A stretch of DNA of 64,000 nt. It comes from Escherichia phage vB_EcoM_KWBSE43-6. Position numbers and translations under genes: made by a program. The DNA lies in sequence record NC_048186.1; one strand, given 5' to 3'. Below the pieces are notes generated by a model. The model was not told where the DNA came from. It was given only the letters and a program-made list of their open reading frames with translations, and did not search any database. Positions 19,223-64,000 of the stretch are shown in pieces. Every line of letters begins with the position of its first letter. The stretch's first letter is position 1.

Positions 19223-19864
19223 ATGGCCACTTCAAAATATTTCAACTACACGAACCACCAAGGCACGCAGAAGTTAATTGATGACCTCGTGGTGGAGATG
19301 ATACAATTACGTGGGATCGACGTCAAGTATATTCCACGCGCCATTTATGAAAAATACCCAATTTTAAACGAAGCCGAACATCGTTTCGACCAGGCGTTTG
19401 ATATTGAGGTCTATATGCAGGATTATCAGGGCTTCAACACCCAAATGTGGGAGAAGTTCGGTGGTATCCAGCTACAAGATGAGGTGACATTTACTATCGC
19501 CCGTCGCCGCTTTGCGGAAGTTATTGGTAACGGACCAGGACTGGATCAACAACCTCAGGAAGGGGATCTCATTTATCTTCCGATGGCGAATAAAATATTC
19601 AAGGTCAATAACCCGAATAATGACGAAGACTTCATGCAATTCGGTAAATGGTACACGTATTCATTACCATGTACCTTGTTCCAGTATGGCAACGAAGACT
19701 TCGATACTGGTGTCCCTGAAATTGATGATATTGATAAACGTCTTCAAGATCTTGAAGGTGATGGGGTTTACCAGGATGCTACTCTCCAAACAGACAACCA
19801 GTTTGCTGATGAGATCGAAGAAGATCTGGCCCCCAATAATGTCAAAATAGATTTTGGAGAATAA
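19223..19864 (+). CDS. gp14: neck protein gp14-like
   Basis: ATG 19223 after GAGGG; position between gp13 and gp15 homologs; size and acidic C-terminus consistent. Confidence 0.65.
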   Translation: MATSKYFNYTNHQGTQKLIDDLVVEMIQLRGIDVKYIPRAIYEKYPILNEAEHRFDQAFDIEVYMQDYQGFNTQMWEKFGGIQLQDEVTFTIARRRFAEVIGNGPGLDQQPQEGDLIYLPMANKIFKVNNPNNDEDFMQFGKWYTYSLPCTLFQYGNEDFDTGVPEIDDIDKRLQDLEGDGVYQDATLQTDNQFADEIEEDLAPNNVKIDFGE

Positions 19865-38306: not shown

Positions 38307-38343
38307 GTTATAATAGAGAGAGTTGAAAAGGTGGGAATATTTT

Positions 38344-38805
38344 ATGGAAGTTAACAACACTCAATATCAAACGATGTCTATAGAGGACATCATGGCTGAA
38401 CTGGATCCACTGATTACGGTTGATCCAGCTGATCGTAATTTAGATCAGATTTCGTTGAAGATCGGACGTTCCTTTATGACAGTGCAGCGGCATTACATTC
38501 GTGAAGGGCGTTATCTGGAATATCTGACTGGGCGGTTTAAACAGATTGATGTTTATCTGCGGAGATATTATGCCGGGGAATTACCTGCGCAATCGTACCG
38601 AGATCGTCCTCTCAACAACAAACCACTGAAAACTGATCTGCCTCTATGGGTCCAGGCTGATGACATGTATGTTGAGATGTCCGGGCTGCTCCAAGAGCAG
38701 AGAGCAAAAGTGAAATTCATCGAAAGTTGTTTGGATCGTTTGAACAAGCTGGGTTATGAAGTCAAAAACGCCATAGATTGGCGAAAATACATGGACGGTA
38801 TGTAG
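38344..38805 (+). CDS. possible recombination mediator UvsY-like protein, 153 aa
   Basis: C-terminal half aligns loosely with remembered T4 UvsY; adjacent to nuclease and UvsW. Confidence 0.4.
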   Translation: MEVNNTQYQTMSIEDIMAELDPLITVDPADRNLDQISLKIGRSFMTVQRHYIREGRYLEYLTGRFKQIDVYLRRYYAGELPAQSYRDRPLNNKPLKTDLPLWVQADDMYVEMSGLLQEQRAKVKFIESCLDRLNKLGYEVKNAIDWRKYMDGM

Positions 38806-38807
38806 CG

Positions 38808-39554
38808 ATGAGTCGACTCCAGGCACTCAAGAAGATCAACAATATTGAGGAACGTCAATATACATTTCAGCAGTACGAATTACCGTACAAGGAGCTGACT
38901 TGTGTAACGAACGAGAATGGACGCCATTACGTTTCCCCAACAGGAGTAAAGTTGACCTCTGTGACAACCATGTTGGGGCGTACCAGTGATCATACATGGT
39001 TGGATGCCTGGGTCGAAAGGCTTGGAGTTGAAGAAGCAGCAATTGAAACACAAAGGTGCGCTGATAGGGGAGAGGCAGTGCATCTTGCTTGTGAGTTATA
39101 TCTGAAGAATGCCCCAATGAAAGATGTTGTGGCCGCCGCCGGACAATATCTGTTCATGTTCATGCAGTTGTTTCCCTATCTGAACCGCATGACAAAGATA
39201 TATGCTCAGGAAATACCTCTATATAGCGAAGTATTGGGCTTGGCCGGGCGTGTGGATTTAATTGGGGTGTACAACGGAACCCCAGCAATTATCGACTTCA
39301 AGACTTCGAACACCCTGAAAACCAGAGACATGATCGAGGATTACAGCATCCAATTGTGTCTGTATTCAGTTATGTTTCAACAGATGTTTAATGTCAAAAT
39401 CGAGCGTCTCATCAACATCATATCCAATGAGAATGGTTTACTGCCGACAGTAATAGAATTCGACAGAAAGGATATTCTCCCAAAAATGTTCGAGCGCGTC
39501 CGTTTATATCACCGTATGGACAAGGAACAGAATGGAATCTGGGCAGACCGCTAA
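38808..39554 (+). CDS. PD-(D/E)xK family nuclease (RecB/Cas4-like exonuclease fold), 248 aa
   Basis: Motifs GEAVH, GRVDL, IIDFKTS, QLCLY in canonical order. Confidence 0.65.
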   Translation: MSRLQALKKINNIEERQYTFQQYELPYKELTCVTNENGRHYVSPTGVKLTSVTTMLGRTSDHTWLDAWVERLGVEEAAIETQRCADRGEAVHLACELYLKNAPMKDVVAAAGQYLFMFMQLFPYLNRMTKIYAQEIPLYSEVLGLAGRVDLIGVYNGTPAIIDFKTSNTLKTRDMIEDYSIQLCLYSVMFQQMFNVKIERLINIISNENGLLPTVIEFDRKDILPKMFERVRLYHRMDKEQNGIWADR

Positions 39555-39581: not shown

Positions 39582-41099
39582 ATGGCCGACATTTCTGTGA
39601 CCAAAGTGAACGAAGTCCGTATGCGTGTGCATGCTGACGCAGGGATCTATGAAGAACTAAATGATTATTTCAAATTTGAAGATCCCAACTTTCAGCCTAA
39701 TCCTTTCAGCAAATGGGATGGCGTCGTCCGTTTATTCACCAAATCTTCCGGGTTGATCGACATCGGTCTTCTGTTTGAACTCTTCAAATTTTGTAAGACC
39801 AACGGTTATTCACTTGACGTAGATCCTGCATTGAAATATATCCAGGACATCCCTGATAATGAAATTCATGATTTCTGTAATAATTTGAAAACACAAATTC
39901 GCACAGAATCTGGGGAATACATTGATGCTGAAGTTCGACAGTATCAATTCGATTCCATCGCCACTGCCATGAGGCAATCTCGCTGCGTCCTCGAGCTGGC
40001 TACAAGTGCCGGTAAATCCTTTATTCTTTATGTGATGGCCCGTTACTACAGGGAAAGACGAGAAGCGCTCGAAAGTAATCTGAGGACGCTTATCGTTGTT
40101 CCTTCTGTGCATCTTGTCAGACAATTGTACGAGAACTTCGAAGAATACAGTCATGGACAATCCTGGAACCCGTTCTACCAGGTACAGACCATATGCGAAG
40201 GTGCAACCCGCAATATTGATAAACCCATCACAATTTCCACATGGCAAGGCATACAAGACCAGCCAAAGGATTGGTTTCATCAGTTTGGTGATATCATTGT
40301 TGACGAAGTTCATACCTCAAAGTCGGATAAACTTTCATATATCCTCAACAACTGCATAAATGCTGACCAGCGCCTTGGGGTGACTGGTACTTTGGCGAAC
40401 ACTAAAGTTGCTGGTCTGCAGGTGGTATCCCACTTTGGTGCCTATCACAAGATCATCACGGCTCGAGAACTGATCAGTATGGGATATGCAGCTGACATTA
40501 AAATCCGGATGATAGAATTGAAACACAGATTGGCCGACGCTATTGATATGCATGGCGCCGATTACCAGAAAGAAATGGAATATTTGATATCGAACGAAGT
40601 TAGAAACCGGCTTATCGCCAAGATGGCTTTAACATTGAAGGGTAACGTCGCCATCATGTTCGAACGTATTGATGCCCATATGATGATCGTGTATGATATC
40701 CTCAAAGAAATAAAGCCCAACGTATTTGTCATCAACGGGGAAGTCAAATCAGCAGACCGCATGCAAATCCAAAGGGCGATAGAAGAAGGTGAGGATATTA
40801 CTCTGTTGGCATCTTATGGAACGATGCAACAAGGGGTTTCTATAAAGAAACTTCACCATCTGGTATTGGCACACCCAAGCAAATCATATATTCGTGTTAT
40901 CCAGACTCTGGGAAGATTGATGCGTCAGCACTCAACAAAAGACGTGGCACTCATATGGGATTTGGTAGACAATTTGAGTTATAATGGGAGTTACAATCAT
41001 GCGTTGCGTCACTCTCACGAGCGATACAAATTTTATTTGACAGAACGCCACCCTGTCGAATTGAAAAGAGTGGCGCTGGAAGATTATTTGGGGTCTTGA
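39582..41099 (+). CDS. uvsW: UvsW-like SF2 DNA helicase
   Basis: ATSAGKSFILYVMARYY (Walker A), DEVH box, TWQGIQDQPKDWFHQFG match T4 UvsW. Confidence 0.85.
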   Translation: MADISVTKVNEVRMRVHADAGIYEELNDYFKFEDPNFQPNPFSKWDGVVRLFTKSSGLIDIGLLFELFKFCKTNGYSLDVDPALKYIQDIPDNEIHDFCNNLKTQIRTESGEYIDAEVRQYQFDSIATAMRQSRCVLELATSAGKSFILYVMARYYRERREALESNLRTLIVVPSVHLVRQLYENFEEYSHGQSWNPFYQVQTICEGATRNIDKPITISTWQGIQDQPKDWFHQFGDIIVDEVHTSKSDKLSYILNNCINADQRLGVTGTLANTKVAGLQVVSHFGAYHKIITARELISMGYAADIKIRMIELKHRLADAIDMHGADYQKEMEYLISNEVRNRLIAKMALTLKGNVAIMFERIDAHMMIVYDILKEIKPNVFVINGEVKSADRMQIQRAIEEGEDITLLASYGTMQQGVSIKKLHHLVLAHPSKSYIRVIQTLGRLMRQHSTKDVALIWDLVDNLSYNGSYNHALRHSHERYKFYLTERHPVELKRVALEDYLGS

Positions 41100-50058: not shown

Positions 50059-50202
50059 ATGGATTCCTGTCTATTAGATCCCGAGAACGTTCTTGTGGTT
50101 GAAATTGAAAACAACAAGCCGTTCATTTTGAAAATGTTGGAGAAGGATAATAATCCTGAAACCAATCCTAAACTATCCCAAAAGGGGAATAACGATGATT
50201 GA
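50059..50202 (+). CDS. small protein, 47 aa
   Basis: ATG 50059 after GAGG; not in ORF track; overlaps next gene start. Confidence 0.3.
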   Translation: MDSCLLDPENVLVVEIENNKPFILKMLEKDNNPETNPKLSQKGNNDD

Positions 50203-52448
50203 ATCATTAGAATTTAAGAATGCCACACAGACGGTCGCTCCTTCCAATCACGTCATCGTCGTTGACATTTCTTATTCCATGTGTTATGCGCTGCCGAAAC
50301 TGCGCCAGCACCTGAAAGAAAACCTGCCCTCCCTGGTTAAGCCGGAAGACACCGTCAGTATTCTGTACTTCTCTTCTCGTGGCGACTTCGGTACTGTGTT
50401 CGCTGGGCGCCAGGTCACCAACGCATCTGACCTGAGTGAGCTGGGTAAACTGATCGATCGCTTCCTGCAACCAACTGGCTGCACCGGATTTGTTGAGCCG
50501 CTCAAGCTGGCTATCGAAACCGCCAACGATCTGAAAAAGTCCGGCGTCATCAATTCCCTGGTGTTCATGACCGACGGTTATGACAACTGCTGGCGTTCCA
50601 GTGAAATTCTCGCGGTCGCAGAGCAGCTGCCAAAGGCGTACGACAACATCACGCTGATCGAATACGGCTGGAACTGCAACCGGGAACTGCTGCAGAAAAT
50701 GGCAGAGTGCTCTGGTGCCACCCATGTATTCGCCGAAGGCCAGGAAGAATATCAGATCGAACTGGAAACAGCGATGGTTTCTGTCGCTCCGCGCGTTCGC
50801 GTTGATTTCAGTATCATCTATTCCTATGCCGTTTATATCGAAAACGGGATTCCGACCATCCTGGCCGCCCAGTCTGATGAAGACCATCCTATCAATTACG
50901 TCAACATCCCTGAGAGCGTCTCTAAGCTGTGGGTTGTTGATCCTGATATGATCGACCAACTGGATAACCTGGCGGACGTTGAAGCGGCATATGTGCTGGC
51001 TCTCTTTGGCGTGCATACTATGGATGCCGACCTGGTGTGGGCCGCGCTGAAAAAGACTGGCGATGTGCGCTTCATTAAACAGTACACCAACTGCTTCACC
51101 AAGCAGGATTATTCCAACATCAAAACTGACATCACAGCAGCGATTGTAGACCCGGCGCTGCGCGGTGTGGACGGTATCGATTACAATCTGGTGCCGCCGG
51201 AAGACGCAACTACTGTTGTTGATGTTCTGACTTACCTGGCGGGAGCAGATGCACAACTGGTTGTTGACCATCCCCTGTTCTCTTACAAGCGGATCGGTCG
51301 CGGTACGGTACAAAAAGCCGACGATACCGAAGACAAGCTGGCGGCAGAAATTGCCGAAGCCAAATCTAAAGAAGAGCGTAAAGCGCTGGCCCTGAAACTG
51401 GCTGAGCACGAAGACTGGACTCCTGTGTTTGAGCCGGTGAAAGGCGCGGGCGTTCCCATCAGCAATCTGGTTTACAACTCGGCCCGCCCGAACATCAGTC
51501 TGCAGACTGTGCAAAACGGGACCGTCATCATCCCGAAGTTCGCACAAAAGAAATACGATCTGCCTGAATCTATTGATACGTGGCAGTGGAAGAACTACAC
51601 CAAAGAAATACGATCTGCCTGAATCTATTGATACGTGGCAGTGGAAGAACTACACCATCGTCAAAGACGGTATCATCCATATGAAGACCCTTCCTGTGGT
51701 CTGCTCGGTGGAAACCGTATCTGAACTGGTTAGCAAAGGCGTTGAAGTTTACGGCGGGCCGGAAGTGTTCATCGTAAATCTGGGCAGCGTTCCTCTGGTT
51801 AACCGCGCGATGGTTAAGAACATCAGCGCCGCGCAGTTCTTTGCTGACCACGTCCGTCTGGAATCCCTGAAAGCCAAGCAGAAGGTTCTCAAATATTTCC
51901 GTGACGAACTGGTTGGGAAAGGTAATGCCGTGGGCCTGGCAGGCAAATACGGCTTTGAAGCGGCTGAGTTTTTGTCTGCGAATGGCATCCGCGATTACGG
52001 CTTCTCTCCGAAGACCGCTTCGGTTGAGTCTACTGATTTCTACATGAGCCGCGAACTCAATGTGAAGATCAAAGGCGCTTCCTCGCTGCCGTCAATTGCC
52101 GCCGTTCTGAAGAAACAGGCCGACAACAAAAAACTGAACGCAGCTGATCAGCTGATCGCTAATGCGCTGGCAGAATACAACGCCTTTGTCAAATCTCCGG
52201 CGGTGACTGCAGTTCCGGAAGCAACGCAGGCCAAGATCATTGAATCTTGGATCAGTGATGCTGCCAAGGCTGCTATCACCCAAGTCCGTGAGCTGAACAA
52301 GACCCTGTCCAAATCTCTGTATGCCATCGTTGCAGGCCATGGCTGGTTCACCGACCTGGATCTGGAAGAGTCCACCATGGAAGTGGAAGTTGATGGCGTC
52401 AAATACACCGTCAGTGCAGTCCTGGAAGAGAAAGAGATCAAAATCTAA
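50195..52448 (+). pseudogene. vWA-domain protein gene split into two ORFs (50195-51622, 51573-52448) by a 55-bp tandem duplication
   Basis: N-terminal vWA/MIDAS motifs (VVVDISYSM, FMTDG); removing one repeat copy restores a single ORF of about 732 aa with KKYDLPESIDTWQWKNYT read once. Confidence 0.6.
51547..51656. repeat. perfect 55-bp direct tandem duplication (2 copies)
   Basis: AAAGAAATACGATCTGCCTGAATCTATTGATACGTGGCAGTGGAAGAACTACACC at 51547-51601 and 51602-51656; 55 is not a multiple of 3. Confidence 0.9.
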
Positions 52449-55749: not shown

Positions 55750-56093
55750 TGCGTGCGAAAAAGTCGACTATCATTATCGTCTACCTGATTTTGGTCTCTG
55801 TCTTTGGTTTATGGGCAAACCATGCATTGGCGGTCCCGGCCAACAATCTGAACAAATGTGCTGCATGGTTGTCTACTTATCAACAATTTCATCCTGACGA
55901 TAAAGATACTTCCATTTTGCTTTCCGATTTTGAAGGTGAAATGAAACGTTTGGACCAGTACAGTACTGACCAGATTGAGAATGCTCTGGATTTACCGATG
56001 ATGGATTCCGCAGCAGATAACAGTCACCAAACTGCCGTAGACCTGTCATATTGCCGTGAGATTGCGATTAACTTTACCCGTAATCAAAAATAA
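55746..56093 (+). CDS. secreted or membrane-anchored protein, 115 aa
   Basis: ATGA overlap; N-terminal KKSTIIIVYLILVSVFGLWANHALA signal/anchor. Confidence 0.55.
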   Translation: MMRAKKSTIIIVYLILVSVFGLWANHALAVPANNLNKCAAWLSTYQQFHPDDKDTSILLSDFEGEMKRLDQYSTDQIENALDLPMMDSAADNSHQTAVDLSYCREIAINFTRNQK

Positions 56094-56142
56094 AATCGGG
56101 TTAAAATTTAGGCTCTAATTGAAAATGACCGGAGTACTTTAA

Positions 56143-56883
56143 ATGACCGATAACGAAATTGCCCAGATCATTAAGCAGCATTCCCGTTTTGCTCCGAATG
56201 CTGCTAATGTCATCATAGTACACAAAGACGGACGTGTATTCTTTGCTGAAAAGTTTGAGCAAGGGAGCCAGTTCTGGGATGCGAGCACGATGCTTCCACG
56301 TACCTTACAAGGTATCATCTACTCCTGTTCTCTGGTGGCGAAGCGGAGCGATGCCGGTCATTGGGTTGGCGTTAATGATCTCGGTGGCATTATGGGTGGG
56401 AAAGAATATCCGACCAAACGCTCCCCGCCGCCTTATGTCAAAGAACAGATGTCCAAGATTACCAATCGTCCAAGGCCGACCCCGAAAGAACCGAAAGTCG
56501 AAGTCGTTCCTGCAACGGCGGTAGAAACAAAACCAGCCAAAAAGGATACTGATTGGCGTTCTGGATTTATCGGGGTTAAAGAATTGGATCGCGAACGTAA
56601 TCCTCGCAATCATCCATTGTTCGTGTCAATACGGACTGATGGTAAAATCATCCTGAGCAAAGGTCTTCTGGATAAAATCGATGGTAATTTTGATTTTCTG
56701 GTGTCTAAGGATCGGAAGGTCATTGCCCTGGTGAAAAACGGTTCTATGTATAATATGAACAAATCGGGGAATTACTCTCACAAAGGTCTGCCCAAGTATC
56801 TCAAGTTCCCAGAAGATTCCGGCACAGTTCGAATCTATATGGATTGGGACCAAGAAAAGAACGCATTTATCGGCAGTCTATAA
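56143..56883 (+). CDS. hypothetical protein, 246 aa, two domains joined by Pro/Lys-rich linker
   Basis: ATG 56143 after CCGGAG; internal linker PPPYVKEQMSKITNRPRPTPKEPKVEVVP. Confidence 0.55.
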   Translation: MTDNEIAQIIKQHSRFAPNAANVIIVHKDGRVFFAEKFEQGSQFWDASTMLPRTLQGIIYSCSLVAKRSDAGHWVGVNDLGGIMGGKEYPTKRSPPPYVKEQMSKITNRPRPTPKEPKVEVVPATAVETKPAKKDTDWRSGFIGVKELDRERNPRNHPLFVSIRTDGKIILSKGLLDKIDGNFDFLVSKDRKVIALVKNGSMYNMNKSGNYSHKGLPKYLKFPEDSGTVRIYMDWDQEKNAFIGSL

Positions 56884-56930
56884 TATCGGGGCGGTTATAA
56901 TGACCGCCTCTTTGATTTGAAGGAATTATT

Positions 56931-57641
56931 ATGCACAATGTAACAAAACTCTATCCGATCATTATCGGGGCCGATCAAGGGCACCTGCATTTATCTGAAC
57001 CCTCATATATCGCCTACGCCCGCGCCGGGGGATCTCGGTATGTATATTGTGAACATGACCATGGGCGTGGTACAGGCATCCTTCACTATACGGTGAACGA
57101 CACTACAATGGTCCCTCTGGCCCCAGAAGACGTTGTGTTGGCCCGGCGCATTTACATTGAATTTAATGCCATGCACAACAACGAAATAGACGCTCGTTAT
57201 CATGCCATGCGTTCTATGGAGGGGCGAGACTGTATTTATCGTATTGATCATTTTTCTGAATTTAGCCAGTCTATAGATTGGTTCATTTCTGACAAGATCT
57301 TGGGTGAAAGGATCATCACAACTCCTTGGGCGCATGCCGAACAACTTCGTGTCTCCACAGACGCATACAAAGAAGTTGATACCCTGTGCAACAAATTCCG
57401 CATTTCTGTAACCTGCAACCAGGACCTGGGTGAAGAGATACAATGGAAAGCGCAGTCCCCACATTTTAGTGATATGGAAATGTGGGCTGAAACCCGTTCC
57501 CGTGCTGTTGTTCAATTAGTTCTGTGGGCATTCTACCAGCGCACCCCATTCTCTTACATGGGACAGAAAACGATTGGTGAAATTCTGAAATCTCATAAAG
57601 TAGAGATTGTTGAAGATTTAATGGGTTGGAGCACATTATGA
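56931..57641 (+). CDS. hypothetical protein, 236 aa
   Basis: ATG 56931 after GAAGGA. Confidence 0.55.
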   Translation: MHNVTKLYPIIIGADQGHLHLSEPSYIAYARAGGSRYVYCEHDHGRGTGILHYTVNDTTMVPLAPEDVVLARRIYIEFNAMHNNEIDARYHAMRSMEGRDCIYRIDHFSEFSQSIDWFISDKILGERIITTPWAHAEQLRVSTDAYKEVDTLCNKFRISVTCNQDLGEEIQWKAQSPHFSDMEMWAETRSRAVVQLVLWAFYQRTPFSYMGQKTIGEILKSHKVEIVEDLMGWSTL

Positions 57642-57871
57642 GCATGCTATTTGATGTCTATTTGGTCCATTTCGTTGCCAGTCAATCCCAAACAACTTTC
57701 CTAGTTTTGTTGCCTTCTGGCAAAGGTATGAGCCTTGATGACATATCCACTTTAGAAAATCAATTCTACGAACGTTGTCATGATCTTGGGTATTTGGTTA
57801 ATTTCAATAAATTGACGGACGAGATCACTGCCGAAGAACATGACCAACTCCATCTTTTTTTCCAATTTTGA
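57638..57871 (+). CDS. hypothetical protein, 77 aa
   Basis: ATGA overlap with upstream stop. Confidence 0.45.
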   Translation: MSMLFDVYLVHFVASQSQTTFLVLLPSGKGMSLDDISTLENQFYERCHDLGYLVNFNKLTDEITAEEHDQLHLFFQF

Positions 57872-57894
57872 ATTACAACAGATTAGAGGCAAAC

Positions 57895-58221
57895 ATGAGC
57901 AGCCGTATTTTTGATCTAAAATTCCGCGTTTGGCACGTTCCTCAGGTGCCGGGGAAAATGTTTACAGTTGAAGTCCCGACGTATGCTGAAGCTGAACGTT
58001 TGAAATCGTCGCTGGCTGATTATGATCTGTTCCAGTATGAGAACAACATCAAACCCGATTATTGCAATGCCAGCGGTATTCAGATTTATCAACACGACCT
58101 ATGTGACGCCGAGTTGATCGAAATGGGCCTTGAAGATCGTTGGGTGGATATCGAGGATGACCAAGATCTACAGGATTATCTGGATCATATTCGTTCTACT
58201 GGTTGGGAAATAAAATCATGA
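57895..58221 (+). CDS. hypothetical protein, 108 aa, acidic
   Basis: ATG 57895 after AGAGG. Confidence 0.5.
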   Translation: MSSRIFDLKFRVWHVPQVPGKMFTVEVPTYAEAERLKSSLADYDLFQYENNIKPDYCNASGIQIYQHDLCDAELIEMGLEDRWVDIEDDQDLQDYLDHIRSTGWEIKS

Positions 58222-58532
58222 CCATGATCAGTTCTTATATCGTTCAAAAAGGTGATACCCTTATGGGGATCTGTATGAAATTTTATTCAGATCCCTATAT
58301 GTATTCAGATATAGCGAAGTACAACAATATCATTGATCCGAACAAAATTTGCGTCGGCCAGCTGATTAAATTCCCCCGGCCTGTCAATGACCCACAAACA
58401 GTCGTTATCCCGGTAGAACCCACTCAGAAATGTTTGGATGCTATTGCAGGCTTATTCCAGGAAGGATTTTGTGATGGTCGTATAGAAAGAGATATTTATG
58501 CCGTCATAGTGAGTTCGGCTCTGAACCAATAA
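58218..58532 (+). CDS. LysM domain protein, 104 aa
   Basis: YIVQKGDTLMGICMKFYSDPYMYSDIAKYNNIIDPNKICVGQLIKFP fits LysM consensus. Confidence 0.6.
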   Translation: MTMISSYIVQKGDTLMGICMKFYSDPYMYSDIAKYNNIIDPNKICVGQLIKFPRPVNDPQTVVIPVEPTQKCLDAIAGLFQEGFCDGRIERDIYAVIVSSALNQ

Positions 58533-58648
58533 TTTATTGGGAATCGGCAAATAAGTGCTTTATTCAATAATTTTTGTTAGGTAAGCTGTAATCCTCTTGT
58601 AGTGAACACAGAAGTAAACATTAACATAAACCAACTGGAGTAATCCGA

Positions 58649-58927
58649 ATGAATCGTCAAGATTTTATCGCACATATCGCCCAAACTCAGGGTGTGACCA
58701 AAACCGAAGCTGAAAAAACTGTCGCGTCCTTTATCGCTGGTATCAACTCTGCCGTCGCTGCTGGCCAATCCGTTCAACTCGTCGGATTCGGCACCTTCGA
58801 AGTGAAACATCAGGAAGCCCGCGCTGGCCGCAACCCGCTGACCGGGGCTGCGCTGACCATCGAAGCGAAAAATGTCGTCAAATTCAAGGTCGGCGAAACT
58901 CTGAAAAACGTCGCCAACGGCAAATAA
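58649..58927 (+). CDS. HU/IHF-family DNA-binding protein
   Basis: GFGTFEVKHQEARAGRNPLTGAALTIEAKNVVKFKVGETLK matches HU beta-arm signature. Confidence 0.8.
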   Translation: MNRQDFIAHIAQTQGVTKTEAEKTVASFIAGINSAVAAGQSVQLVGFGTFEVKHQEARAGRNPLTGAALTIEAKNVVKFKVGETLKNVANGK

Positions 58928-58976
58928 AACAAATTCGGCCAGTACCAGGCGCACTGCGCAGGCAGGTACAAAGAGG

Positions 58977-59003
58977 AAGCCGGGGATTACCCCGGCTTTT
59001 TCG
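58977..59003 (+). terminator. rho-independent terminator
   Basis: AAGCCGGGG atta CCCCGGCTT TTTCGTTCTT. Confidence 0.65.
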
Positions 59004-59052
59004 TTCTTGGGATTCGGGTAAACTATACTGACACCCCCAAAGGAGAAATCAA

Positions 59053-60774
59053 GTGACAGCATTTAACCAGCATGCCAAAGCGCTGGATACTCTTCGCAGA
59101 GAAATACCTATAGAAGAAATCCAGAAATTGGCCGAACAATATTTTCCATATGACCACGCCAACCCCGGCCAAATGGAATGTATTGTTGAAGCCATAGATG
59201 CGTTGGCCAATAAGAAATTCAAACACGTGATTATCGAAGCTCCTACCGGAGTCGGTAAATCCCTCATCGGCACAACTATCCATCAGGTGTTGCGCCATCT
59301 TGTGCTTGAAGCAAACCCTTATGGCCAATTCCGTACATCCATTTCCACGCCGACCAAAGGTCTACAAGATCAATATGCGGCTGAAAAAGCTGTTGCTATC
59401 GATATCCTGAAAGGCAAGAAGAATTATCGCTGCCATATGCATCCGGATATCTATTACAACGCAGTGCAATGCCGTATCGCTTGCCGGGATGGGCATTGTA
59501 GTAAGAGGCGTTGCCCCTATGTCCAGGCCCGTAATCTCTGGACCAACATCTCTTCATTACGCTGCACAAACGCAGCCATGATGATAGAAATGTGCACCAC
59601 CATTTGTATGAAGCCAGAAAACCGGGCCGACATGCTTATTTTGGATGAGTGCCATAAAATGCCCTCTACACTCCTAGACCATACGATCATGGAATACAAT
59701 ACGAAGGTATTGGAAGGACTGAGATCGTTGCCTCAGGGGAAGGATATCGTCCAGGCAGTGGTTGAGATCGTTTCCCATTGCAAAGACTATGAATTGGGCA
59801 AGCTGTATTCCCTTGATGGTTATCTGTTCGACCGTTTTGTAGACTTGTTAGGAAAGGTGGAAGCCATTTTAACAGAACTGCATGAACTCGTCGAAGATGA
59901 CCGCCTGACCGAAGCCCAGGTAATGAAGCTGGCCGATATTATCGACATCCTCCACAACCTATCTGACTATTGTGGTATCATGTCACAGACCCAGGCGAGT
60001 ACATTCATTGTACAGGAGAAAGGAGAAGAATTCATCCGCTTCAAACCTGTTATGGCATCGGATGTGTCTGAATTCGGGCTTTTCCGCAAAGCCGATTATC
60101 ACGTACATATGTCTGCAACCATCTGTGGAATTGATGCGTATGCTCGCTCCTTGGGTATTCGTCCTGGGCAGTACCATAAGATACAGATAGGAAACCCAAT
60201 CCCGATTGAGAATCGCAAAGTCAATTACATGCCGGTTATGAAAATGACCAACAATATGGGTGACTATGAGATGCGTCAGCTGGCCGGGTTTGTTGACGAG
60301 ATCATACAATTCCATCAAGGCCAGTCTGGCATCATTCATACGGTGAGTTATGACCGGGCGCTGGCGATACAGAAGTTCAGCAAATATCGGAACATCATCC
60401 ACGTACCCAGGACCCGTAAGGCTCTGATGGAACTGATGGATAATGCTTTCCGTACGAAGACGCCGTGCATCATCGCCAGCCCGGCTATGGAAGAAGGATA
60501 TGACTTCAAAGGGGATTATAGTCGTTTCCAGATTCTTATCAAGGTGCCATATGATTACCTTGGTGACCCATTAGTTGCGCATATCAACTCTGTGGATCCA
60601 TCGGCGTATTTCCGGAATGCCATACTGCGTATCATACAAATGTGTGGGCGTTCGGTCAGGGGCGTGAACGACTGGGCCGCGACATACATCCTGGATTCTT
60701 CCTTTGAATCCTTGATGATGCGCAACCCAGAGTTCTTTCCAACTTGGTTTACCGAGGCAGTATTTGAAGTTTAA
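59053..60774 (+). CDS. DinG/Rad3(XPD)-family helicase, 573 aa
   Basis: GTG start with AAAGGAGA SD; Walker A EAPTGVGKSL, DECH box, Cys cluster CRIACRDGHCSKRRCPY. Confidence 0.8.
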   Translation: MTAFNQHAKALDTLRREIPIEEIQKLAEQYFPYDHANPGQMECIVEAIDALANKKFKHVIIEAPTGVGKSLIGTTIHQVLRHLVLEANPYGQFRTSISTPTKGLQDQYAAEKAVAIDILKGKKNYRCHMHPDIYYNAVQCRIACRDGHCSKRRCPYVQARNLWTNISSLRCTNAAMMIEMCTTICMKPENRADMLILDECHKMPSTLLDHTIMEYNTKVLEGLRSLPQGKDIVQAVVEIVSHCKDYELGKLYSLDGYLFDRFVDLLGKVEAILTELHELVEDDRLTEAQVMKLADIIDILHNLSDYCGIMSQTQASTFIVQEKGEEFIRFKPVMASDVSEFGLFRKADYHVHMSATICGIDAYARSLGIRPGQYHKIQIGNPIPIENRKVNYMPVMKMTNNMGDYEMRQLAGFVDEIIQFHQGQSGIIHTVSYDRALAIQKFSKYRNIIHVPRTRKALMELMDNAFRTKTPCIIASPAMEEGYDFKGDYSRFQILIKVPYDYLGDPLVAHINSVDPSAYFRNAILRIIQMCGRSVRGVNDWAATYILDSSFESLMMRNPEFFPTWFTEAVFEV

Positions 60775-61538
60775 TAACCAGCAATAAATGACAGGCGACA
60801 TTTGAGATTCGGTGCCAGGGATGTCAGGGATATGATCATATCATCGCTGTCCATACTGTACTCAATTGTCGCCAGTTGCTGGGTTTGAACATTGTTGTAT
60901 TCACTGTAGATCAAGTCCTCACCACGGAAACCGATTTTTCCATCTGTATCTTGCCAATGACCTTGTGTTTTGTCATAAACATGGACACGGAATTCTACCA
61001 TATGGAAAAGCGCTTTCGGTATACTTTTCAATATACTGGTGCCGACGACTGGGATCTCAATATTGGCATCATTGGCCCCGCCTTCATAAACTGGCGCCCA
61101 ATTGAATATAGGATCACCACCAGCGACCGGAGTCCTTTTCCAATATTGGAATTCCGGGTTCCCTGAATCGTTTTTCTGCAACAATATGACTTCACCACCT
61201 GTAAAATTGGTGGTATCAATATCGTCTCGTGCCAAGATATCTGCCGGGGAACCGATAAATTTCCAGCCATCACGATCCAATAATGACTTATAATAGTCTG
61301 TGAAAACGTTGCTGTCGCCAGCATTGTTGATTGCGTCTTTGAGACCTTCTCCTGTGACCATCTCATTGACTTTCAACCACATGTTTTTGACCGCAGACGC
61401 TGCCGCAACCTGGCCTGGTGTACCGCCTGCAGCGTAGTCATAGATGATGTCTACATTCTGTATTGCGGTCTGTATGGACAGGAGAAGTCGTTCAATTTCA
61501 GCTGCGGTTAAACTGAAACGATAAGAACGTTCAGCCAT
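60771..61538 (-). CDS. hypothetical protein, 255 aa, opposite orientation
   Basis: Minus ATG 61536-61538 with GAGGA 8 nt upstream; stop overlaps helicase stop by 4 nt. Confidence 0.5.
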   Translation of the reverse strand: MAERSYRFSLTAAEIERLLLSIQTAIQNVDIIYDYAAGGTPGQVAAASAVKNMWLKVNEMVTGEGLKDAINNAGDSNVFTDYYKSLLDRDGWKFIGSPADILARDDIDTTNFTGGEVILLQKNDSGNPEFQYWKRTPVAGGDPIFNWAPVYEGGANDANIEIPVVGTSILKSIPKALFHMVEFRVHVYDKTQGHWQDTDGKIGFRGEDLIYSEYNNVQTQQLATIEYSMDSDDMIISLTSLAPNLKCRLSFIAGY

Positions 61539-61579
61539 AATAATGTCCTCATGATAAACAAGTTTGGAGTATTTATATC

Positions 61580-62119
61580 GTGATTGAAATTTACACTGAC
61601 GGCGCTTCATCGCCACAGACCACACAAGCGGCGGGATGGGCCTTTGCAGTCAGCCCGATTTCTGGCGGGGCACAATGGAACGTATTCTATGGTTATTTGC
61701 CACCGCCTTCCACAAATAATATAGCAGAACTCTTGGGCGTTATTAATGCTCTGAAACTCCTTTGGAAATTTTCGGGTTGTGGTGAGCGTAATATTCCCAA
61801 AGCGACGATTATATCCGACAGCCAGTATGTCATCAATAGTGCCACCAAATGGCGTTCGAAATGGGAATATGAGGGTATGCCTCCCAAAAATACTGAATTG
61901 CTTCTTGATTTGTTCAATATGTATGACAAAGTTTGTTCAATTTGTGAACTTGAACTAAAATGGGTCAAAGGTCATGCGGGTACAATCGGCAACGAAATTG
62001 CGGATCAGTGGAGTGTCCGGGCCAAAGAAAATAGCAGTATGGTCCTGGAAAACGAACGATTTCGCGTCAAGAAAGTAGTCGGTTCATTCAATCAATTTAT
62101 CGGTATCTCTGAGGGTTAG
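61580..62119 (+). CDS. ribonuclease HI (RNase H type 1)
   Basis: IEIYTDGAS, TNNIAELLG, ISDSQYV, WVKGHAGTIGNEIADQ reproduce the D-E-D-H-D catalytic pattern of E. coli RNase HI. Confidence 0.8.
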   Translation: MIEIYTDGASSPQTTQAAGWAFAVSPISGGAQWNVFYGYLPPPSTNNIAELLGVINALKLLWKFSGCGERNIPKATIISDSQYVINSATKWRSKWEYEGMPPKNTELLLDLFNMYDKVCSICELELKWVKGHAGTIGNEIADQWSVRAKENSSMVLENERFRVKKVVGSFNQFIGISEG

Positions 62120-62122
62120 ATC

Positions 62123-62893
62123 ATGGGCATGAATTTCGTAGACAGAGGGGAAAACGTCACCAAATATTTCACTGACGAAGACAATGAGCGTGTCATCGCA
62201 ATATTACGTGACTGGATACCCGGAAGGAAAAAGGCGATAGCCGAAGGGAAGCCCCTACCCAAGATTCCGAATTATGTGGCCGCCAAAGTTCATATGATCA
62301 TCCACAAAATGAGTACCCGCTACAACTACAGAGATTATCCTTTCCGTGAAGATATGGTGAGCGATGCCGTCGCCAATATCCTTCGATATTTGCATACCTT
62401 CGATGTCAGCCATGTTGGAAAGAAAGGGAAGATCAATTTCTTCTCTTGGGTGACCATGTGTGCTGACCGTTCATTCGCCCGCAAATTGACCATCGAAGAA
62501 GAACACACATATATCAAATTGCGTTCGTTCGAAGACGCGGGCGGATTTGCTGCGTTCAGTGATGATCCAGACTTCCAGCCTCAGACATTTGTTGACAACA
62601 CTGGGATCACAATGGATTTTCGTGAGCGGATAGGTCACTTCGAAAATAAGAAAGAATCCCAGCGTGAAAAGGAAAGACAAAAACAAGCCGACCTCAAAGA
62701 AGACGAAAAGAATAAAAAGATTCCAAAAGGTATACTTCAATGTCTCCGTGGACCGCAAAATAATGCTACCGCACAGGCCGAAGATGATTCAGAACAAGAC
62801 TTCGGCAAAACCCAATTCAGCCTTGAAGAAATAATGGATAGCCCTACACTGCTATCCGAATTATCAGGAGAAAAGAATAATGGCGATTGCTAA
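62123..62893 (+). CDS. gp55: late-transcription sigma factor gp55-like, with long acidic/basic C-terminal extension
   Basis: N-terminal 130 aa resemble remembered T4 gp55; immediately upstream of gp47 as in T4. Confidence 0.6.
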   Translation: MGMNFVDRGENVTKYFTDEDNERVIAILRDWIPGRKKAIAEGKPLPKIPNYVAAKVHMIIHKMSTRYNYRDYPFREDMVSDAVANILRYLHTFDVSHVGKKGKINFFSWVTMCADRSFARKLTIEEEHTYIKLRSFEDAGGFAAFSDDPDFQPQTFVDNTGITMDFRERIGHFENKKESQREKERQKQADLKEDEKNKKIPKGILQCLRGPQNNATAQAEDDSEQDFGKTQFSLEEIMDSPTLLSELSGEKNNGDC

Positions 62894-63998
62894 GATCGGC
62901 GATTTACACATCGGGAGCCGTAATGGATCTCGTTATGTTCGTGACTTCATTAAGAATTATCTCATCAACTATTTCATTCCTGAACTCGTTGATGCCGATA
63001 TCAAAGAAGTCTGGCAATTCGGCGACACATTTGACGTCCGTAAATTCATGTATGGGCGCGACAAAGATTGGCTAAAAGATGAGTTGGCCCCGGCTCTGCG
63101 TGCTGCTGGTATCAAGTGGAACGGTCTTGTCGGCAACCATGACATCACTCTGGAAGAATCTAACCGCATCAACTGGCCTTCTTACCTTGTCGATATGGCC
63201 CCGGATGTGTTCACCTATTACTCCGAACCGACGGAAGTTATGGTCGAGGGCAAAAAAGTCCTGGTGCTTCCGTGGATCAACAAAGAGAATTACAATGCAT
63301 CTATTAAAGCATTACAAGATACAGACGCCAAGTACTGTTTTGCGCATCTGGAGTTGGCAGGGTTCAAAATGTACCAATCATCTGTTTGTGATCACGGTCA
63401 GATCGACGTTGCATTGCTTTCCAAATTTAACCGGGTCGACACGGGGCATTTTCATACCCGTTCGATGGAAGGTAACATTCAGTATCTGGGAACGCCATAC
63501 CATCTGACATGGGAAGACCACAAAGACGGGGATAACCGTGGATTCTACGTGGACGACCTGACTGAAGGTGGTGAGCTGTTCATCCCCAACAACGCCAGCC
63601 AAACTCTATTCCGGTATGTGGAATATGATTACACCAAACTGTCATCTGATGACGAAGGTAATTGGATCGATCCGGAATGGCTAAACACCAAGTTGGGTAT
63701 TGAAGGACAGATCGTTAAGATTATCGTAACCAATCGTGATAATTCTAAGCATTACGAGAAGTTCTGTGATGCGATGAAGCGCTGTAAATGTATTGACTAC
63801 AACTTCATCGATAAGACCGTGACTGTTTCGGCTGAAAAGGTTGAAGTCACCGAAGAAATGATCGCGACCGATGCTGTGGAAGTTCTGAAGAATGATATCC
63901 GCGCTGCTGACAATATCCAGCGCCCAGAATCGGTCTGTAAACTGGCCGAAGCATTCTATACAGCCGCCCAACAACGTCTTAATACTCTGGATGCATAA
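62880..63998 (+). CDS. gp47: recombination endonuclease subunit gp47 (Mre11/SbcD-like metallophosphoesterase)
   Basis: GDLHIG, GDTFD, GNHD phosphoesterase motifs; overlaps gp55 end by 14 nt. Confidence 0.8.
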   Translation: MAIAKIGDLHIGSRNGSRYVRDFIKNYLINYFIPELVDADIKEVWQFGDTFDVRKFMYGRDKDWLKDELAPALRAAGIKWNGLVGNHDITLEESNRINWPSYLVDMAPDVFTYYSEPTEVMVEGKKVLVLPWINKENYNASIKALQDTDAKYCFAHLELAGFKMYQSSVCDHGQIDVALLSKFNRVDTGHFHTRSMEGNIQYLGTPYHLTWEDHKDGDNRGFYVDDLTEGGELFIPNNASQTLFRYVEYDYTKLSSDDEGNWIDPEWLNTKLGIEGQIVKIIVTNRDNSKHYEKFCDAMKRCKCIDYNFIDKTVTVSAEKVEVTEEMIATDAVEVLKNDIRAADNIQRPESVCKLAEAFYTAAQQRLNTLDA

Positions 63999-64000
63999 CG

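Follow-up and report, generated by a model that had tools for sequence, protein, structure and literature searches.

We analyzed a 64,000-nucleotide stretch of DNA from Escherichia phage vB_EcoM_KWBSE43-6 (NC_048186.1), hereafter called the window, with a focus on a block of five genes at positions 58218-62119. These genes encode a LysM-domain protein, an HU-family DNA-bending protein, a superfamily 2 (SF2) helicase of the XPD/DinG family, a virion protein on the minus strand and a type-1 RNase H (RNase HI) (Table 1). According to our analysis, with a rough probability of 75%, the block consists of several independent units of a "scattered" Ackermannviridae genome, conserved and already annotated. 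The initial annotation of this DNA had proposed that HU, the DinG-like helicase and RNase HI could form a toolkit against R-loops or replication-transcription conflicts. The gene identities behind this proposal stand and the neighborhood of helicase and RNase H is conserved, but the anatomy of the locus does not agree with a single functional module.

Table 1. Features of the block and its surroundings, with positions in the window.
Feature	Position	Strand	Evidence or description
LysM-domain protein, 104 aa	58218-58532	+	Pfam LysM 31.9 bits, cut-off 20.9
Conserved non-coding element, ~55 nt	58557-58609	+	Near-invariant in four clades
HU-family DNA-bending protein, 92 aa	58649-58927	+	Pfam PF00216 Bac_DNA_binding 104.5 bits (threshold 22.4)
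Intrinsic terminator after HU	58973-59010	+	13-bp G+C-rich stem (GAGGAAGCCGGGG/CCCCGGCUUUUUC), then U-rich tract
SF2 helicase, 573 aa, GTG start	59053-60774	+	Helicase_C_2, ResIII and DEAD domains; phrog_2488 853 bits
Late virion protein, predicted gp9-like fold, 255 aa	60771-61538	-	Fold matches, orthologue mass spectrometry
T4-type late promoter motif TATAAATA	61570-61577	-	39 nt upstream of the minus-strand gene ATG
Type-1 RNase H (RNase HI), 179 aa, GTG start	61580-62119	+	Pfam PF00075 RNase_H 89.9 bits (threshold 25.8)
gp55-type late sigma factor	62123-62893	+	phrog_234 185 bits; Menlow annotation
gp47 (Mre11/SbcD-like) recombination nuclease subunit	62880-63998	+	phrog_100 351 bits; Menlow "T4_gp47", then gp46
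P22 gp17-type superinfection-exclusion gene	57868..58221	+	Pfam GP17 146 bits, phrog_1510
Nuclease between UvsY and UvsW-like helicase	38778-39554	+	PD-(D/E)XK (Cas4/RecB-like)

All five gene assignments of the initial annotation were borne out, and the five open reading frames (ORFs) lie where it had placed them. The 104-aa LysM protein has a Pfam LysM domain above cut-off, and the 255-aa minus-strand gene is convergent with the helicase gene, the two stops overlapping by 4 nt. The protein described as an HU/IHF homologue with its own terminator matches the Bac_DNA_binding profile over its full length (residues 1-90 on profile positions 1-90), and its gene is followed by a hairpin and a U-run. 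For the DinG/XPD-type helicase said to carry an iron-sulfur (Fe-S) cysteine cluster, we found the domains, the fold and four invariant cysteines, and the type-1 RNase H, for which a loss of catalytic residues had been named as a possible refutation, has its Pfam match and conserves all of them.

The same annotation implied a T4-type genome, which is wrong, since the closest relatives of the region are Taipeivirus phages of the Ackermannviridae. The 4.3-kb region shows 98.5% nucleotide identity to Klebsiella phage phi1_175010 and 98.4% to Klebsiella phage Menlow, both Taipeivirus. Top-ranked Taipeivirus records are 97-98.5% identical to it and the most divergent Taipeivirus listed 92%, and matches of about 76% identity reach Kuttervirus, Salmonella phage Vi01, CBA120-like Escherichia phages and others. 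In total, 244 records match the region, 229 of which cover at least 80% of the query. Judged by these relatives, the window is that of an Ackermannviridae Taipeivirus (Vi1-like) genome rather than of a T4-type phage. The 68-kb record GKM-TASP92, with a partial match of 96.8%, was considered as a case of horizontal transfer; the record is a sparsely annotated partial genome, and the idea was dropped. All five genes carry annotations in relatives (ATP-dependent helicase/dinG, ribonuclease H/rnhA, DNA-binding protein/hup, LysM domain protein), and the block is already known, being annotated in more than 200 phage records. A core-gene table of Vi01-like phages includes "Ribonuclease", "ATP-dependent helicase" and "DNA binding protein", and a late sigma factor and two recombination endonuclease subunits adjoin these entries (PMC10892097).

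Synteny was examined in 22 further Ackermannviridae loci, retrieved with the 255-aa protein. We observed that the order HU-helicase-minus-strand gene-RNase H-gp55-gp47 is invariant in all 22 loci reaching that far; HU in locus L024, which stops at a contig edge, stands outside this count. In Vibrio phage 1.244.A and in a metagenomic contig, with helicase identities of 46% and 39%, the helicase is still accompanied by RNase H, gp47/gp46 and a minus-strand gene of some 246 aa; extra genes are interspersed, and helicase and RNase H lie within about 1.5-2 kb of each other. No HU-domain gene was seen in the flanks shown of either sequence, and the linkage of HU to the helicase is therefore confined to enterobacterial genera. 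Three other helicase lineages have no RNase H nearby: two of them lie beside topoisomerase genes and the third beside neither. Read from these layouts, the helicase-RNase H neighborhood is older than the HU linkage, though not universal. In locus L026 (10666-13674; 44% helicase identity), the helicase adjoins a topoisomerase gene, not RNase H, and lies a few kb from the thymidine-hypermodification genes HMUD2, ADDT and HMUDK_hel.

The initial annotation had called for a comparison of gene content with related phages. HU through RNase H is retained both in relatives and in genome-reduced mutants, which speaks against genes that can be absent without fitness cost. In the genome-reduced selz/SenALZ1 phages (118.6-143.6 kb; parent 154.8 kb; PMC9825161), this part of the block is intact in 7/7 genomes. 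The five smallest of these (H66-H70 of matches H61-H70; locus L036, selz_8t3) lost about 2.7 kb of parental sequence upstream of HU, within the same query. HU through gp46 is untouched in them, and the lipoprotein gene is, judged from Vi01, among the genes that were lost. This retention shows importance, not cooperation.

The closest solved relatives of the HU protein are bacterial HU and IHF (E 1e-22 to 1e-17; one HU 5.8e-20), and its match to TF1 of phage SPO1 is weaker (E 6.5e-12). Residues R58, R61, N62 and P63 of the beta-arm are present, as read from the translation. Q55, A67 and T70 occupy the positions of what we take to be R55, K67 and K70 in E. coli HU-alpha. With 66-78 bits, the protein stays below the cut-offs (111-162 bits) of the NCBIfam equivalog models for HU-alpha, HU-beta and IHF; by these scores it is a member of the HU family and the equivalog of no host subunit. 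Local G+C is raised at the gene (0.48-0.51), and a second HU paralogue was not found in the complete relative cp21.

Upstream of HU, the conserved non-coding element is near-invariant from Taipeivirus to the most divergent loci, whereas the flanks further upstream are unrelated. A role as promoter or 5' leader of HU is probable. The idea of a repeated phage promoter consensus was considered and rejected, as the full element occurs once in the window; readings as a T4 MotA box or as a sigma-70 promoter were rejected by inspection, because the spacing does not fit. Downstream, the hairpin is marked as a terminator by the authors of the Menlow annotation. Given the conserved upstream element and the terminator, HU is therefore a self-contained expression unit.

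To characterize the helicase, we aligned it with 25 diverse homologues (32-100% identity). Exactly four cysteines, C127, C140, C149 and C154, are invariant (25/25) and they sit between Walker A and the DECH box, where XPD and DinG carry their 4Fe-4S cluster; they form a putative 4Fe-4S site. In the same alignment, P64-T65-G66-x-G68-K69 of the Walker A motif PTGVGKS is invariant and S70 nearly so, and D198-E199-x-H201 of the DECH box and Q529, G532, R533 and R536 of motif VI are invariant as well. The AlphaFold2 model has a predicted local distance difference test (pLDDT) score of 89 and a predicted template modeling (pTM) score of 0.88. In fold comparisons E. coli DinG ranks first (6fwr, E 5.6e-25), followed by Finegoldia DinG, XPD and CasDinG, and the top 44 Foldseek matches are nearly all DinG, XPD or CasDinG chains, in agreement with the fold of this family (HD1, FeS, arch and HD2). 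Scores against the NCBIfam equivalog models are far lower than required (DinG, 63.8 bits against a cut-off of 598; YoaA, 54.2 against 680). On these scores, neither DinG nor YoaA of E. coli is an orthologue of the helicase, which belongs to the phage-specific clade phrog_2488.

The mechanically called minus-strand ORF is longer than the gene (284 aa, from a GTG); the PHROG profile, 40 homologues and the annotated relatives all place the start at the ATG at 61538. Searches of the 255-aa protein against solved structures, with the single sequence and with a profile, returned chance-level matches only and none to gp9. Its structure model has a mean pLDDT of 70, with a C-terminal beta-sandwich at 85-95 and a weak N-terminal half. 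Compared with predicted viral structures, this moderate-confidence model retrieved Vibrio-phage orthologues first, and then entries named "Gp9plus10 baseplate wedge tail fiber connector" and "baseplate wedge subunit". Fold comparison, in which a gp9 baseplate protein was the best match, was the one informative approach. The protein may thus adopt, with moderate confidence, a gp9-like fold of the baseplate periphery or fiber-anchor kind. Ackermannviridae are said to lack gp9-gp11 in a 2024 review (PMC11721090). The orthologue of the 255-aa protein in Salmonella phage Sajous1 is gp203, a "putative structural protein" with 39 spectra from CsCl-purified virions; gp201, gp202, gp204 and gp199, the orthologues of HU, helicase, RNase H and LysM, are not in this virion list (PMC10892097).

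The T4 late-promoter consensus TATAAATA has a single exact match in the window, both strands searched. It falls in the 41-nt gap between the minus-strand gene and RNase H and overlaps, on the other strand, the spacer between the ribosome-binding site and the start of RNase H. By our own arithmetic, about 2 matches are expected by chance window-wide, and the chance for one to land in these 40 nt and on the strand concerned is about 6e-4. All 22 related loci retain the motif, in the form TATAAATA, TATAAGTA or ATAAATA, in a spacer that is otherwise divergent. A 50-kb stretch of Menlow has only two exact copies, which precede the baseplate-hub and tail-tube genes, both on the minus strand, by 36 and 42 nt; most minus-strand genes of this stretch are structural and lie among plus-strand early genes. 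These motifs suggest that the late promoter of the ViI family is T4-like. It was described as not identified in the CBA120 paper (PMC3184105), and our results bear modestly on this statement and on that concerning gp9-gp11 (PMC11721090). Because the promoter motif is conserved, Sajous1 gp203 is present in virions and the fold matches point to the baseplate, we consider the 255-aa gene a late virion gene, unrelated in function to the nucleic-acid enzymes that flank it. Exact copies of TATAAATA outside the window lie at 19640 (-) and 24902 (-) of locus L030, every exact copy (1 in 64 kb, 2 in a further 50 kb) precedes the ATG of a minus-strand structural gene by 36-42 nt, and the near-matches CATAAATA and CTAAATA precede two other baseplate genes.

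The RNase H aligns full-length with E. coli RNase HI structures, and D7, E50, D80, H132 and D142 align with D10, E48, D70, H124 and D134 of the E. coli enzyme; this residue alignment agrees with the PDB alignments. Its score against the NCBIfam equivalog model (68 bits) is below the cut-off of 160. The position of the start is conserved in related loci, with an ATG in other clades. The gene heads a tight run RNase H-gp55-gp47-gp46, with a 3-nt gap followed by a 14-nt overlap.

T4 itself is not known to have an HU, an XPD/DinG helicase or a type-1 RNase H. The T4 rnh gene is annotated as a 5'-3' exonuclease of the flap endonuclease (FEN) type. No T4-type FEN was found in the complete close relative cp21 by tblastn and phmmer --max with T4 rnh (best E about 1). 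The "exonuclease" of core-gene lists, which lies between UvsY (38323-38805) and the UvsW-like helicase (39582-41099), was considered as a FEN and rejected, being of the PD-(D/E)XK type instead. Since no T4-type FEN is detectable in the complete close relative, RNase HI is most likely the enzyme that removes RNA primers and RNA:DNA hybrids. The most economical inference from these searches is that Ackermannviridae would employ a type-1 RNase H where T4 employs an unrelated FEN.

At the other end of the block, the LysM domain spans residues 7-53 of its protein and the remaining C-terminus of about 50 aa is uncharacterized. NCBIfam matches cover just the LysM portions of larger proteins, and no catalytic domain (muramidase, amidase, peptidase, transglycosylase) was found in Pfam or NCBIfam searches; an N-terminal hydrophobic segment is absent by inspection. 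We rejected the name "endolysin", which many records give to this gene, as a PHROG-based over-call: the PHROG "endolysin" matches cover LysM-type segments alone. Peptidoglycan binding is the sole role that these domain matches support. The LysM start overlaps (ATGA) the stop of the superinfection-exclusion gene, which sits outside the five-gene group. Each of the two genes is present in some of the 22 related loci and absent from others, and in every annotated Ackermannviridae row compared, the LysM gene stands beside the exclusion gene. LysM is a variable accessory gene coupled to superinfection exclusion. A word-indexed homologue search with the LysM protein returned 4 close relatives.

Further scans added little to this picture. 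An Rfam scan of 56000-64000 gave nothing credible, a repeat scan of the region returned the terminator hairpin and chance pairs only, and generic scans for sigma-70 promoters and for terminators did not rise above chance. Elsewhere in the window, a phrog_2426-class gene (about 736 aa) carries a frameshift caused by a 55-nt tandem duplication at 51543-51657 (2.1 copies, 98% match). The gene is split into ORFs at 50195-51622 (475 aa) and 51573-52448 (291 aa), and cp21 has both parts in one frame. This duplication may be a recent inactivating event or an assembly artefact.

Taken together, we propose that the locus would comprise five units. The first would be the accessory pair of the exclusion gene (sie-gp17) and LysM, variable between relatives. 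HU would be a monocistronic gene for a probably abundant DNA-bending protein serving phage DNA transactions. The helicase, by analogy with its family, would act as a 5'-3' translocase on forks, D-loops or R-loops in replication or recombination. The late virion gene on the opposite strand is most likely read from TATAAATA by RNA polymerase with the gp55 sigma factor, encoded 600 nt away. Finally, RNase HI would head the run of gp55, gp47 and gp46 and clear RNA primers and RNA:DNA hybrids in replication.

A joint action of HU, helicase and RNase HI to resolve R-loops or replication-transcription conflicts on phage DNA, as initially put forward, seems unlikely to us. In E. coli, DinG unwinds R-loops and RNase HI degrades their RNA. 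The phage helicase is of DinG/XPD type, the catalytic residues of RNase HI are intact, helicase and RNase H stay about 1.5-2 kb apart down to 39-46% helicase identity, and all three genes are retained in the genome-reduced mutants. However, the co-occurrence and the layout of the three genes, in the window and in relatives, are not those of one operon or module, because a terminator stands between HU and the helicase, helicase and RNase H have an antisense late structural gene between them, RNase H is packed with gp55, gp47 and gp46, and HU is unlinked to the helicase in relatives beyond the enterobacterial genera. Other lineages place the helicase with topoisomerase genes and have no RNase H nearby, and the helicase is not the orthologue of E. 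coli DinG. The entire neighborhood, gp55/47/46 included, is syntenic, so adjacency may be plain inheritance. A narrower proposal keeps only the Fe-S XPD/DinG-like helicase and RNase HI, as a dedicated pair for RNA:DNA-hybrid processing that would replace the FEN solution of T4. It is prompted by a neighborhood conserved from Klebsiella to Vibrio phages and by the lack of a detectable T4-type FEN in the complete close relative. Such a pair may handle primers or R-loops, for example at R-loop-primed origins or on hypermodified-thymidine DNA. The conservation of the two genes allows a functional link without showing one, and we hold the proposal to be doubtful.

Two other readings concern single proteins of the block. 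HU could be a TF1-like factor for hypermodified-thymidine DNA, acting in compaction, replication or late transcription apart from helicase and RNase H. Several records do name the protein "transcription factor 1", its own conserved control region and terminator suit high expression, Ackermannviridae DNA bears hypermodified thymidine (review PMC11721090), and thymidine-hypermodification genes lie near the helicase in one related lineage. Yet bacterial HU and IHF are closer to it than SPO1 TF1, at 92 aa it does not have the C-terminal tail of TF1, and it was not found in the Sajous1 virion list, which makes such a role improbable. As for the helicase, the PADLOC profile PDLC01439 ("typeIV_DinG, CAS-IV-A associated") matches it over nearly its full length (E 4.4e-51), far more strongly than the NCBIfam DinG models, and CasDinG structures are among its fold matches, as if it were a CRISPR type IV-like (CasDinG) or defense/anti-defense component and not a replication protein. 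We give this idea hardly any credence: PDLC01439 probably behaves as a general Rad3/DinG family profile, the PADLOC models matched 0 of the neighboring proteins scanned, E. coli DinG outranks CasDinG in the fold comparison, the four invariant cysteines suit an Fe-S DinG/XPD helicase, and the gene lies in a replication/recombination neighborhood in every relative.

We favor the reading of the block as independent units, and several points weigh against it. Genes that genome-reduced mutants keep need not be essential. It is the tight spacing that suggests a joint transcription of RNase H, gp55, gp47 and gp46. T4 rnh was the only query of the FEN search, and a very divergent FEN could escape it. 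The last ribonucleotide of a primer is beyond the reach of RNase HI, which would require a further 5' nuclease (host Pol I?) for this step. The gp9-like model is of moderate confidence, given its mean pLDDT and weak N-terminal half, and it comes with no sequence match to gp9. More generally, we infer all the biochemical roles given to these genes.

As a discovery, the block carries little weight. The value of the analysis lies in its corrections: a Vi1-like genome, independent units, a virion gene on the minus strand, a LysM protein that is not an endolysin and a type-1 RNase H that would take the place of the T4 FEN. If true, a link between helicase and RNase HI would offer a testable handle on the replication of hypermodified DNA by these therapeutically used phages.

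Compared with other Ackermannviridae, the window shows the same genes, order, strands, 4-nt convergent overlap and HU terminator as Menlow (CPT_Menlow_121-125), Vi01 (Vi01_110c-104c) and further members of the family. Vi01 differs by two additional genes, one for a lipoprotein, between LysM and HU, and some genera have no LysM gene. The HU protein shares with bacterial HU and IHF the fold of about 90 aa and the R58/R61/N62/P63 beta-arm, although the copy in the window is phage-encoded, and it resembles bacterial HU more than SPO1 TF1. The 255-aa protein may be likened to T4 gp9, the connector of wedge and long tail fiber, and to the gp9/gp10-type XD domains of tailspike anchors. It differs from T4 gp9 in that sequence similarity is not detectable, that it has 255 aa compared to 303 aa in the matched Gp9 chain, and that the model is confident in the C-terminal half alone.

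Like E. coli DinG and archaeal/eukaryotic XPD (Rad3), the helicase combines the SF2 motifs and Helicase_C_2 with an insertion resembling an arch and with four cysteines placed between Walker A and B; its best fold matches in this group are 6fwr, 9p55 and 5h8w. It differs from them by an identity of about 15%, a shorter length (573 aa) and a compact cysteine arrangement, C127-x12-C140-x8-C149-x4-C154. With E. coli RNase HI, the phage RNase H shares the DEDD catalytic residues, the histidine and the full length of the domain, whereas about 10 inserted residues follow its E50 helix, its basic protrusion is shortened and its C-terminal tail exceeds that of the E. coli enzyme by about 14 residues.

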